Source of the DNA: Shigella phage ESh24
Sequence record: ON528734
Length of the DNA stretch: 64,000 nt
Strand: one strand, 5' to 3'
This document shows, piece after piece, positions 34,367 through 39,841 of the stretch (within the stretch, counting starts at the first letter, position 1; the number at the start of each line of letters is the position of its first letter). The notes under the pieces were generated by a model. The model ran no database searches. It was not told the origin of the DNA and was given only the letters and a program-made list of their open reading frames with translations. The position numbers and the translations under genes are program-made.

Positions 34367-35023
34367 TTATTTAGCCCTTCCTAATATTCTGGCCGCCTGA
34401 GCACATATTGATTCAAGGCGGTCATTACTTATATGATCATTTCTATACCAGTACATGGTTATCGTTCCAGCATAGATATTATCCAAATTAAAATATGGAC
34501 AACTGTACATGTAGTTTATTTCGGGAGTAGGCTTTTTAGTTGGTAAAAAAGCAAATTTTGAGTTGGAATAATAATGACGTCCATTTAAATGAACTATATA
34601 TTCATCCATAGTTTTATCAACAGGATATCCTCCAAGTGATTTTTCACTTATTGTTGAAGGTAATTTTCCTTCATATGCTATAATATCAACAAAATAGTTT
34701 AAGTTTTTAGGGCGGAAAGAATACACCGCACTAAAGTCTGCCTCAGATGATATATGAACTATCTGGAGTTGTTCCAGGGCGACAGATTCAAAGCGTGCAT
34801 TTCTTTCCTTTTCAATAATTTCACTGTATGTTTCATACTTTGATTGCTTATAGTACTCAAAGAAACTATCTCCCCTATACCAAACAATCGCCATTATAAA
34901 CAAAAGAATTACGACAGCTACCCGGGAAGCAAGAACCTTCCCGGTAGCATTATCTTTGAACAAGCGATCTAGAACACCCAACAGAATATCAGAGGGCGAA
35001 AATGATATTCTAGGTGCTGCCAT
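34367..35023 (-). CDS. t: Holin T
   Basis: 218 aa; N-terminal transmembrane domain plus large periplasmic domain; matches T4 T. Confidence 0.93.
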   Translation of the reverse strand: MAAPRISFSPSDILLGVLDRLFKDNATGKVLASRVAVVILLFIMAIVWYRGDSFFEYYKQSKYETYSEIIEKERNARFESVALEQLQIVHISSEADFSAVYSFRPKNLNYFVDIIAYEGKLPSTISEKSLGGYPVDKTMDEYIVHLNGRHYYSNSKFAFLPTKKPTPEINYMYSCPYFNLDNIYAGTITMYWYRNDHISNDRLESICAQAARILGRAK

Positions 35024-35041: not shown

Positions 35042-35049
35042 TATTTATA
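35042..35049 (-). promoter_or_regulatory. Late promoter for t
   Basis: TATAAATA on the minus strand about 20 bp upstream of the t start. Confidence 0.65.
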
Positions 35050-35068
35050 TGCTGAGAGGTATTACCAT

Positions 35069-35848
35069 TTAAATCCAGGAACCATAGATCGTGCCTGTTG
35101 CACCCCATGATGGCGAAGAACCGAATACCGCTCTACCTGGAGCACCACCGCCGGATCTAGATAAGTGATTACCCCATCCATCTCCACCCCGACCTCCAGC
35201 ATCACCGCCATTGCCACCGCCAAATTGACTTGTATTACCACCGCCGCCTGGACCGTCATAACTAGCATTGCCACCAGGCCAATTAACACCACCGCCACCG
35301 AGACCAAATGGTCTGCCACCGCCACCACCAGCTGTAGCATACGCGTCCCAGCTATTCTTTAACGACACTGCACCACCGCCACCGCCGCCTGATGCAATAA
35401 CGCCATAGTTCCAAATGCGGAGTCGTCCACCAATATCATTTTGGATTACGTCGCCACCATTAGTGCCTGGGCTTCCATTTACGCTACCATTACCACCTCG
35501 GCCCCACATATGAACACCACCATGAATATTCAAAGTAACATATTCGTTAGGAGTATCACCATACATGAAGAATAAAGGAACGTCTTTAGAATATGATACT
35601 AAGTTGCCTGTGATATTAAACACTATAGGAGCGCCACCGGCTTCAAAACAACGGTCACGGAACCATTGACCATTAAAGTTATGGTCTGCTCCAAGAGTGT
35701 GAATAATTTCTCTTGAACGTCCAGCGAATTGTGACATCCAAGATGGGTTCCCTAGACGTAATTCTCTAGAAGCTGCTGACATCCAACGTTGACCTGTTTC
35801 AGCCACTGCTGATGTTCCAATCCAACCAGGTATTCCTACTACTGCCAT
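35069..35848 (-). CDS. 38: Receptor-recognising adhesin gp38 (T2/T6 type)
   Basis: 259 aa with multiple Gly-rich stretches (GGGGGG) between variable segments. Confidence 0.85.
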
Positions 35849-35878
35849 AAAAACCTCCAGGGCCCGAAGGCCCTTTTA

Positions 35879-38800
35879 TTATTTTATCAATGATTTAATT
35901 AATGCTTTCAACTCAGCAATTTCAGATTTCAATTCCTTGATTTCGTCAGTATGCTCGTTGATAGTGGCAGTATTTAAACCAATAATACCGTTATAGTTCA
36001 AACGAAGCAGTCCGGTCTCTTTATCTTCAGAAACAAGTTCAGGAAATACTTTTTGAACTTCCTGGGCGATTAAACCGGCGGACGGTTTAACTTCATCAGT
36101 AACGGGGTTTTTAAGCAGATAAGTATAACCACCTAAGAGTTTAGATTTCTCTTGTGCGTTATCGATAAGCTTAATTTCCGATTTACAACGAATATCAGAA
36201 CGAATATAAACGTCGTTAACGTCAATGTTATCGCGAACATACATACCGGCGTTACAGTGGAAGTTAACGTTACTAAAGGTCTGGGCCAGCCCAGCTCGAA
36301 TACTGAATACACCTTGACCATTAGCATACATGTTGTAGATGCCATCGCTTTCCCAGACCAATCCAGTGTCATTGTCACCAATTGCTATGCATGGCGTAGA
36401 CCAAGCGGGTTCAATACCTACACCAATACCCGCCCAACCGGAAACAATTCTTCCTGGGGAAGTAAACTGCCCGTTGGCCAAAAATTGATAAACCGCTGCA
36501 GGATGTCCTTGTTCTGGTGTATTTTCAGTTGAACGAACAATTATACAACCGGTACCCCAACCTGCGGTACCTGAACGTAAAGTACCTAGCTCTACACTTG
36601 TGTTATATCCATACCCCGTTGAAGAACTTCGTCCTTTAATAATAGGATAGTACACATTCCCGTTTAATTCGCCATGTTCTACAAATATAGGAGCTTCAAG
36701 GTTATATTGTAGGCTAATCATACCTGAGTTTTGAGAGACCCATCTTGTAGCATTAACGTACATACGGTTTTCACTCATTTGAACCAAGCCAAAAGCGCTT
36801 GGGCTAAATGTAATGGCGCCAGCGTCATTCAAATCAATACCGGTTGTTGTTTTATAGTTGTAAAAAGATACTGTGTCAGATTGGCCACCTTTACCAACAA
36901 ACCAACTATTAGCACCACCAACTTCTGAACGAATATGCGAACTATTAATTGCATTAGGTGCTCTAATTACTAAAGCATCATCGGCCGCAGCAATAGTTAA
37001 TTTTCCGGTCATCGTATCGCCTTCTTTGGCAATACGAGTAGCTATTGCATCGCGAATATTTGTAATGTCTCCTGCTGAAGTAAACGTTTTCCAAATATCC
37101 GAGAAAATATTACCATTACGAGCAATAGCAGCTTCGCCACCGCCGACCAGAACGTTATCGGGAAAATTAACGGTACCATCGGCGTTAAATCTTGATGTAT
37201 GGCCTTGTGAACCATCTTCTTTGATATGGTGTAAAACAAATGTACCCGAATTAATTTCAGTACCTAAAGACCAAACAGCTTTACTGTTTAAAAACTTCTG
37301 TTTAACAATAGGATAATATTTACTTACTGCGTCATCATCGATTTCCTGGAAAATAGGAGCTGCTTGAACATATTGAATATCATAACCACCAGCGCCCGCG
37401 CCGTGACCAGTAAATTTAATATAACCGTTTGCTGCGAACGTATTGTAACTTGATTGTAAATCTGGAATAGTAACTTTACCAGTATCTAAAGCCATACTAA
37501 ACGGGCGAAGTGGACCGATATCGCCGTGTTTACCTTCACCGTAAGCAGTTGGAATAATATGAAGACTACCTTCTGAACGTCTAAAAATGGCTCCATAATC
37601 TGCGTTCCAAATACGAAGCGCATTCACTGCTCCAGATGAAATTTCACCTGTTGTGTGAACTCCTCTATCTCCAGCAGTAACACCAGATGATTCAAATGAA
37701 CCATTAACGTTCATTTCTACTTCGCCAGTAGTAAGTCTTTGAATATAGCTCATCCAGCTAGTTGCATCAGAAATTTCCATAATGTTTTTACGGATACCTC
37801 CGCTTGGATCAACAAACGTATTACCCCAAACTTTAATATCCATATTATCAACCGAGCTGTATCCTGTTGTGTTGCCTCTAAACATTAGTGTAGAAGAATT
37901 ATTTCTACCATCTATATTAACAGAACCGCCAATAACGTCAATATTACCAGGAGTAACTAACAAACCGCCGTGAGTATTAATGTTTGTAGTACCCTTACCG
38001 CGGAAATAATGATGATAATTACCACCTTGATAATATCCTAAAAGAGTTTGACCGTCGCCGTATGCGTTATTATCGTGGTATGTTACTACAGTAGCAAGAG
38101 CATAGTTTTCTGTCGGTGGCGTTGTCATAAGAATCCCATCCGGAGAATAACCCATAACCATTTTTCTAAGGCTTTGTGTTTCCGCAGGACCGTAAATGAA
38201 AGTTCTTGTTCCGTTGTTTACTGTATGAAAATATCCGTCCTGGTGCCATTTTAGCCCGGTATCATTATCACCAAGAGCAATCGAAGCAGTCCCTAATTCA
38301 GAATATCCTTTAGAGCCACCCGGAAGACCTATAGAAATAGAATGGCCTGCTTTCAATCCACCGGCCCAGTTAAACGACCAAAGATAAGTGTCTAAGCCAT
38401 CTCCGGAATACCAGGTTATTCCGTCATTAACATTAACTTCGTGGAAAATACCTGCTCCTACAGCATTTCGCATAACACGTAGGTGGTTAATAGCCGTTTC
38501 GCCTTCTGCCATTGGAGTGTTATTTGATAATGAATAGATATCATAATCGCCTGTCTTCTTCCCGTTTGTAATAACTTTGTCGGTCAGAATTTGTGGAGAC
38601 GAAATAGATTTCCATGCTGATACTTCAGGTGAAGTAAATAGGCCACTGCCTGAAAATGCATAAGTGCTTTCGCTACCAGCGGCGTAGTCTTGAACCCTGA
38701 TATTAAGTACTTGTGTAGTTAAACCATCATTAGCCGGGGCATAAATGATTCCACGTTCGCGACTATTGCCATCGAAAAAACGAACATGCGCTGTACCTGA

Positions 38801-39145
38801 ACTTTTTGTAATAAGTTCTCCGCCTTCAGTCATAATCTGCCCAGCAGCAATAATATCACGAGTTACTCGAGCAATACCAGTTAAATTAAAATTACCAGTC
38901 TGGGTGAATGTACCGTTTAAAGTATAATCACCAGTTTGGTTATAATTGCCTTTATGAATAACATTCCCGTCAATACTACCGCCTTTAGCAAAACCTAAAT
39001 CAATAATATTTCCCTGGTCATCTTTAGTAAAAAGTACACGGTCTTTTAAGTTTATAGCCAATTCACCTTCGGCTAATACTGAAGCAGCTGGACGTTGACC
39101 TGCCGTTTTGCTTCTTTTAAATTGTATTTGTTTTAAAGTAGCCAT
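35879..39145 (-). CDS. 37: Long tail fibre distal subunit gp37
   Basis: 1088 aa; position between 36 and 38. Confidence 0.9.
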   Translation of the reverse strand: MATLKQIQFKRSKTAGQRPAASVLAEGELAINLKDRVLFTKDDQGNIIDLGFAKGGSIDGNVIHKGNYNQTGDYTLNGTFTQTGNFNLTGIARVTRDIIAAGQIMTEGGELITKSSGTAHVRFFDGNSRERGIIYAPANDGLTTQVLNIRVQDYAAGSESTYAFSGSGLFTSPEVSAWKSISSPQILTDKVITNGKKTGDYDIYSLSNNTPMAEGETAINHLRVMRNAVGAGIFHEVNVNDGITWYSGDGLDTYLWSFNWAGGLKAGHSISIGLPGGSKGYSELGTASIALGDNDTGLKWHQDGYFHTVNNGTRTFIYGPAETQSLRKMVMGYSPDGILMTTPPTENYALATVVTYHDNNAYGDGQTLLGYYQGGNYHHYFRGKGTTNINTHGGLLVTPGNIDVIGGSVNIDGRNNSSTLMFRGNTTGYSSVDNMDIKVWGNTFVDPSGGIRKNIMEISDATSWMSYIQRLTTGEVEMNVNGSFESSGVTAGDRGVHTTGEISSGAVNALRIWNADYGAIFRRSEGSLHIIPTAYGEGKHGDIGPLRPFSMALDTGKVTIPDLQSSYNTFAANGYIKFTGHGAGAGGYDIQYVQAAPIFQEIDDDAVSKYYPIVKQKFLNSKAVWSLGTEINSGTFVLHHIKEDGSQGHTSRFNADGTVNFPDNVLVGGGEAAIARNGNIFSDIWKTFTSAGDITNIRDAIATRIAKEGDTMTGKLTIAAADDALVIRAPNAINSSHIRSEVGGANSWFVGKGGQSDTVSFYNYKTTTGIDLNDAGAITFSPSAFGLVQMSENRMYVNATRWVSQNSGMISLQYNLEAPIFVEHGELNGNVYYPIIKGRSSSTGYGYNTSVELGTLRSGTAGWGTGCIIVRSTENTPEQGHPAAVYQFLANGQFTSPGRIVSGWAGIGVGIEPAWSTPCIAIGDNDTGLVWESDGIYNMYANGQGVFSIRAGLAQTFSNVNFHCNAGMYVRDNIDVNDVYIRSDIRCKSEIKLIDNAQEKSKLLGGYTYLLKNPVTDEVKPSAGLIAQEVQKVFPELVSEDKETGLLRLNYNGIIGLNTATINEHTDEIKELKSEIAELKALIKSLIK

Positions 39146-39833: not shown

Positions 39834-39841
39834 TATTTATA
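39834..39841 (-). promoter_or_regulatory. Late promoter for gene 36
   Basis: TATAAATA on the minus strand upstream of gene 36. Confidence 0.65.

Follow-up and report, generated by a model that had tools for sequence, protein, structure and literature searches.

The tail-fibre locus of Shigella phage ESh24 carries, as its gene 38, a receptor-recognising adhesin of the T2 type, and the loops of this protein point to the porin OmpF as the probable receptor. ESh24 is a Tequatrovirus that was recovered from Washington DC sewage by isolation on Shigella (ON528734; PMC9686686). Its genome measures 167,086 bp (ON528734), and the stretch of 64,000 nucleotides of this record that was analysed is referred to here as the window, to which all positions apply. 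Taken as a whole, the account of a T2-type gene 38 adhesin located at the fibre tip, with OmpF as its most likely receptor, is held with good confidence. ESh24 gp38 is a typical protein, already deposited, of a family whose structure and genetics are well characterised. What is added in the present analysis is the annotation, the assignment to the OmpF class, the coordinates of five loops, and the recombination boundaries, whereas a possible effect of the loop-B variant on specificity is the sole point with any novelty. A correct annotation and an OmpF receptor prediction are thus available for a protein deposited as "hypothetical" from a Shigella phage of a therapeutic-cocktail panel. Receptor knowledge helps in combining phages with different receptors, and the practical value of the prediction is modest.

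Gene 38 and its surroundings

The open reading frame of gene 38 has exactly the extent and the 259 residues that an earlier, sequence-only reading had assigned to it; its strand, left unstated there, is the minus strand (Table 1). It starts with an ATG at 35846-35848, preceded at a spacing of 5 nt by a GGAGG Shine-Dalgarno sequence (35854-35858), and its product is an exact match to URY13098.1 of Shigella phage ESh24, labelled "hypothetical protein" in GenBank. Glycine makes up 67 of the 259 residues (26%) and 53 of the 146 residues between 114 and 259 (36%), with runs of six (154-159), five (174-178), four (184-187 and 201-204), and three (210-212 and 233-235), and several GG pairs besides. 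Across 78 homologues the glycine columns are invariant and the segments between them vary. The runs and this variation together bear out the architecture of poly-glycine stretches alternating with variable segments that had been noticed in the letters. Owing to the glycine codons, the local GC content of the gene reaches 0.57, compared with about 0.30-0.38 in the flanks. Two open reading frames in other frames, 35062-35340 (minus strand; 92 aa) and 35165-35362 (plus strand; 65 aa), were not taken as genes and are regarded as by-products of the GC-rich glycine-codon tract. Among the homologues, one cluster is labelled 'Bacillus cereus', which is probably a contamination or a mislabelling, and a 303-aa E. 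coli entry consists of a Peptidase_S74 tail fused to gp38, probably because its start was miscalled or because the spacer between gp37 and gp38 was read through.

The order of gp37 (with its Peptidase_S74 domain), gp38, and the holin t corresponds to a T2-type layout. In gp37, the sequence DVYIR/SD (the slash marks the cut) aligns with the S16 cleavage site NVS/SD, which is known from experiment, and an S16-like cleavage motif of gp37 has been discussed for the fPS phages (PMC7917993). By this alignment, gp37 is predicted to cleave itself after R982, exposing the docking tip for gp38. The gp37 cluster at 90% identity has two members only.

Transcription signals of the T4 type were also considered. 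A late promoter box follows the gp38 stop codon and precedes the holin gene, and the fPS-2 record carries a predicted late promoter annotated at the same position. The motif search revealed no box directly upstream of gene 38; the next TATAAATA box upstream is found at 39834-39841 (minus strand), which would place it before gene 36 by T4 gene order. Over the whole window the motif occurs 7 times against 9.96 expected, a count that is not above chance. Gene 38 thus lacks its own late promoter and probably shares a late transcript with genes 36 and 37.

The 30-nt spacer between gp37 and gp38 harbours a perfect hairpin with a UUCG tetraloop. Hairpins of the C(UUCG)G type occur in the intercistronic regions of T4. 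The folding energy of the spacer hairpin in its context is unexceptional (z = -1.2), and it is followed by the Shine-Dalgarno sequence rather than by a plain U-tract; its reading as a terminator was set aside on both grounds. It is treated here as an element resembling the T4-style UUCG stability hairpins.

Table 1. Features of the gene 38 region, in window coordinates
Feature	Position	Strand	Basis or remark
Gene 38, T2-type receptor-recognising adhesin, 259 aa	35069..35848	minus	ORF, Pfam, PDB matches, exact GenBank look-up
N-terminal gp37-attachment domain, codons 1-45 (approximate boundary)	35714..35848	minus	Gp38_N; conserved W9/W22/W37
Conserved beta-helix part of receptor-binding domain, codons 46-113 (approximate boundary)	35510..35713	minus	Beta strands with pLDDT 92-96; aligns to PP01 gp38 from residue 41 onward
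Glycine-rich motifs alternating with hypervariable segments (polyglycine-II sandwich and distal loops), codons 114-235	35144..35509	minus	Gly runs, invariant Gly columns, model
Loop A, residues 122-127, SVNGSP	35468..35485	minus	From PP01 loop A, W119-I124 (PMC12892980)
Loop B, residues 163-172	35333..35362	minus	K164, D168, Y170; block 161-170 with pLDDT 63, the lowest-confidence loop
Loop C, residues 186-190, GGVNW	35279..35293	minus	Identical in nearly all OmpF-class members
Loop D, residues 205-209, NTSQF	35222..35236	minus	Q208 = RB51 Q206, the OmpF/OmpW switch residue
Loop E, residues 223-231, DGWGNHLSR	35156..35182	minus	Identical in nearly all OmpF-class members
Gene 37, distal long-tail-fibre subunit, 1088 aa, trimer capped by gp38	35879..39145	minus	Pfam Peptidase_S74, Gp34_trimer, gp37_trimer; exact match URY13099.1
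gp37 intramolecular chaperone (Peptidase_S74), residues 983-1088	35882..36199	minus	Pfam domain at 983-1038
UUCG-tetraloop hairpin AGGGCC-UUCG-GGCCCU	35859..35874	minus	Lies in the gp37-gp38 spacer; the Shine-Dalgarno sequence of gp38 follows immediately
T4-type late promoter box TATAAATA	35042..35049	minus	Downstream of the gp38 stop codon, ahead of holin t
Gene t, holin	34367..35023	minus	Pfam Phage_holin_T, 4.6e-117; downstream neighbour of gene 38

Family, fold, and attachment to the fibre

Two Pfam families, and no others, pass the E-value limit of 0.01 for gp38, both at values well beyond chance. The first is GP38 (PF05268; E=8.8e-82, 274.6 bits against a cut-off of 25), which covers residues 47-259 over profile positions 1-218 of 218, and the second is Gp38_N (PF21721; E=8.1e-21, 74.2 bits) at residues 1-42; a scan against NCBIfam returned no matching family. 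Sequence matches in the PDB comprise PP01 gp38 (9v85, 5.7e-74) and, over the full length, S16 gp38 (6f45_D, 5.8e-50), with no other real match. A single-chain AlphaFold2 model built on the 78 homologues attained a mean pLDDT of 86 and a pTM of 0.79, with low confidence in the N-terminal 45 residues and in the loop-B block. Comparison of this model with the PDB by Foldseek led to the same two proteins, namely PP01 gp38 (TM 0.93, rmsd 1.2 A) and S16 gp38 (TM 0.80), and yielded nothing beyond them, all remaining matches having E >1. The assignment to the T2/T6-type adhesins made from the letters is thus upheld by Pfam, by the PDB sequence matches, and by the folds. The alignment with T2 and T6 gp38 that had been suggested as a check likewise gives identities of 53% and 65-68%, and the values for PP01, S16, and M1 are 66%, 50%, and 57%. 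W9, W22, and W37 are invariant among 10 aligned adhesins, W9 and W22 being conserved in at least 90% of the 78 sequences, and all invariant family residues of both alignments are present in ESh24 gp38. The low pLDDT of the N-terminal domain (43-76) is what would be expected of a domain that becomes ordered on gp37, while codons 114-235 are modelled with high pLDDT as neither helix nor strand. ESh24 gene 38 is therefore a member of the T2-type adhesin family, with a predicted fold composed of a beta-helix and a polyglycine-II sandwich with distal loops.

The name of the gene also belongs to a different protein. T4 gp38 is a tail-fibre assembly chaperone that is absent from the virion. Many close relatives of ESh24 gp38 in GenBank bear the label 'long tail fiber assembly chaperone/catalyst', a mislabelling by which the T4 function is given to them. 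Besides these labels, the reading of ESh24 gp38 as a gp37 assembly chaperone outside the virion could draw on the gene name and position, and on nothing further. By BLASTP, ESh24 gp38 displays no similarity to T4 gp38 (NP_049864, 183 aa, from NC_000866), the comparison giving E=0.14 with 18% identity over 60 aa, and only the adhesin families were found by Pfam; the alignment with T4-type chaperones that would have spoken against the sequence-only reading is thus not seen. Moreover, the modelled fold equals that of the PP01 and S16 adhesins, and gp37 has an intramolecular chaperone of its own. A T4-type identity is ruled out at the level of sequence and fold, and the probability left to such a role is minute.

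For the adhesin, a course of assembly and adsorption can be proposed in which several steps are borrowed from relatives. By homology, gp37 would trimerise assisted by its C-terminal chaperone domain, which would then cut itself off after R982. The exposed gp37 tip would be capped by one monomeric gp38 through its N-terminal domain with W9, W22, and W37, as suggested by the S16 structure; the 1:3 geometry of gp38 to gp37 in this capping and the cleavage of gp37 are both taken from S16. The remainder of gp38 is expected, at the level of the structure model, to fold from the conserved glycine-rich motifs as a beta-helix and polyglycine-II sandwich. The hypervariable segments, i.e., loops A-E, would protrude at the distal face and bind the extracellular loops of a porin, most likely OmpF, and adsorption would start with this reversible binding.

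Receptor loops, receptor class, and exchange of the fibre tip

The borders of the five loops were taken from the crystal structure of PP01 gp38 (PMC12892980) and mapped onto ESh24 gp38 by alignment. That the variable segments of gp38 set the receptor, as had been proposed for this gene from the letters, has support in the literature from swaps, cross-linking, and point mutants (PMC12892980; bioRxiv 10.64898/2026.04.02.716166), and the proposal can be sharpened here to an allele of the OmpF class. Across 136 sampled family members, identities to the C-terminal half of ESh24 gp38 fall into two groups, with 0.91-0.95 in the OmpF class versus at most 0.71 elsewhere, the frameshifted record of Bp7 at 0.77 being set aside. 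Over the full length, ESh24 gp38 is 95% identical to that of AlbertHofmann (Bas47), 92% to fPS-2, 90% to fPS-90, 91% to FL33, and 87% to RB51. AlbertHofmann depends on ompF, as demonstrated with a complemented knockout (PMC8594841); fPS-2 and fPS-90 use OmpF plus the LPS core (PMC7917993); FL33 uses OmpF (PMC12032242); and OmpF was assigned to RB51 by RB-TnSeq (bioRxiv 10.64898/2026.04.02.716166). Because its loops belong to an allele class in which the typed members require OmpF, ESh24 gp38 is predicted with reasonable confidence to recognise OmpF as well.

The loops themselves agree with this class to different degrees. Loops C and E are the same as in every typed OmpF phage compared. Loop D retains Q208 and has N205 where the typed phages have Y, the whole loop being that of VR5, whose receptor is untyped. 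In loop A, ESh24 and VR5 share SVNGSP versus TVNGNP in the typed phages, which amounts to two conservative changes (S/T and S/N). The residues K164, D168, and Y170 of loop B, on the other hand, were seen in none of the 135 other sampled sequences; the other OmpF-class proteins carry Q, A/P/S, and N at these positions. Loop B varies among other OmpF-class members too (AP, PA, SA, and AA), and no change of receptor is known to accompany this. When IMG/VR was scanned with a degenerate pattern for the loop-B variant KNSWDAYAT, no match was found; this null result is weak, as the control for the common variant recovered one contig only, VR5 itself.

The distinctive loop B raises the question of whether specificity has been shifted or broadened by the three changes (Q164K, A/P168D, and N170Y), towards OmpW, OmpC, LamB, or a Shigella-specific variant of the OmpF loops. 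Besides the rarity of this loop-B sequence among the sampled sequences and in IMG/VR, such a shift would be in line with the isolation of ESh24 on Shigella (PMC9686686) and with the PP01 study, according to which loop B matters for adsorption (PMC12892980). In addition, a single Q206L in loop D, reported for RB68, suffices to switch an RB51-type gp38 from OmpF to OmpW (bioRxiv 10.64898/2026.04.02.716166), so that a high identity is no guarantee of the receptor. The gp38 sequences of RB51 and RB68 in GenBank are identical, yet the preprint reports Q206L in RB68; either the stocks or the record differ. For Bp7, whose gp38 also falls into the OmpF class, use of LamB and OmpC is cited (PMC10987938). 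The class also includes FL31, which is weakly ompF-dependent, deletion of ompF causing a drop of 1 log only (PMC12032242). Against a shift stand the identity of loops C and E to those of the typed phages, the retained Q208 and VR5-type sequence of loop D, the conservative nature of the changes in loop A, the variation of loop B elsewhere in the class, which is not known to alter the receptor, and the weakness of the IMG/VR result. A changed specificity is accordingly considered unlikely for ESh24. If true, retargeting through loop B would constitute a second specificity switch in the OmpF class, parallel to Q206L. As for the Bp7 record itself, the deposited gene 38 (HQ829472) has two 1-nt deletions relative to ESh24 (at nt 669 and 735 of the gene) that leave its C-terminus frameshifted, while the conserved family sequence, including TWGATGAIYGSWL, is still encoded in the other frames. 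The record is probably erroneous at these frameshifts as a result of a sequencing artefact, which matters in view of the LamB and OmpC use cited for Bp7.

Against five class members, the dN/dS of gene 38 is 0.04-0.12 at dS 0.56-0.73, and the hypervariable half behaves likewise, which indicates that gene 38 is under constraint. DNA identities to the five lie at 83-89% versus 90-97% for the proteins; a protein identity of 97% alongside at most 89% in DNA is explained by the low dN/dS at this dS. By these comparisons, the "hypervariable" segments are strongly conserved within one receptor class.

In a sliding comparison, ESh24 and RB51 are 99-100% identical on both sides of the locus and diverge from about 38850 to about 35175. 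The divergent stretch covers most of gp37 and all of gp38 except its last ~35 codons, within which the right-hand junction falls. From 36300 to 35400, i.e., in the gp37 C-terminus and the 5' half of gp38, identity is 90-95% to VR5 and AlbertHofmann versus 48-89% to RB51, and the gp37 shaft at 36266-37078 has 81-87% protein identity to the Dhakavirus phages Bp7, LHE83, and UGJNEcP3. Judged from this pattern, a cassette of distal gp37 and nearly the whole of gp38 has been replaced in an RB51-like backbone. Furthermore, each type of gp38 N-terminal domain goes with its own type of gp37 tip, ESh24, VR5, and AlbertHofmann standing on one side and RB51 and PP01 on the other, which fits a docking interface inherited as a unit. 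Mosaicism of the fibre genes of T-even phages is already known (PMC3157838). The movement of the tip cassette and the conservation of hypervariable segments within a class are not new to the field, and the locus offers a clean example of both.

The mosaic structure, together with the label "hypothetical protein", might suggest that gene 38 is a decaying or non-functional copy and that the receptor is bound by gp37 or another fibre. However, the reading frame is intact, of full length, and equipped with a Shine-Dalgarno sequence, every invariant family residue has been kept, and dN/dS is low. Additionally, gp37 ends in a docking and cleavage motif of the T2 type and not in a T4-type receptor-binding tip. 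Loss of function is thus regarded as highly improbable, and ESh24 gp38 is considered the adhesin of this fibre.

Relation to known adhesins

The known systems that can be set beside ESh24 gp38 range from a mere namesake to close relatives. T4 gp38 shares with ESh24 gp38 its name and a location flanked by genes 37 and t, and nothing else; the sequence is unrelated, and its 183 aa contrast with 259 aa in ESh24. The gp38 proteins of T2 and T6 have the family and architecture of the ESh24 protein, with a strongly diverged beta-helix region in T2 (residues 55-100). Loops B (SLKNSY...) and E (GWGKNV...) of T2 gp38 resemble those of the OmpF class, and OmpF is also used by T2. Furthermore, T2 binds FadL and T6 binds Tsx (PMC8594841).

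S16, of the genus Gelderlandvirus, provides the structure of the gp37-gp38 tip complex (6F45). The identity of its gp38 to ESh24 gp38 includes the N-terminal attachment domain, and the intramolecular chaperone and cleavage site of its gp37 are homologous to those of ESh24. The loops differ, loop B of S16 being 5 residues shorter, and the receptor is Salmonella OmpC. The closest fold is that of PP01 gp38 (9V85), onto which the ESh24 model fits at 1.2 A over 216 aligned columns with 64% identity there. Both have the beta-helix, the PGII sandwich, and five distal loops in common (PMC12892980), whereas PP01 gp38 binds OmpC of O157 and differs from ESh24 in all five loop sequences and in the length of loop E.

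The nearest relatives are the OmpF-class proteins of Bas47, fPS-2 and fPS-90, FL33 and FL31, RB51, and VR5, with 87-97% identity to ESh24 and identical loops C and E. All of them have 259 aa and align with ESh24 without gaps, except for RB51 and FL31 at 257 aa. These phages display the same gp37-gp38-t context as ESh24. The DVYIR/SD tip is common to ESh24, VR5, and AlbertHofmann, while RB51 and the fPS phages differ from ESh24 in the N-terminal domain of gp38.
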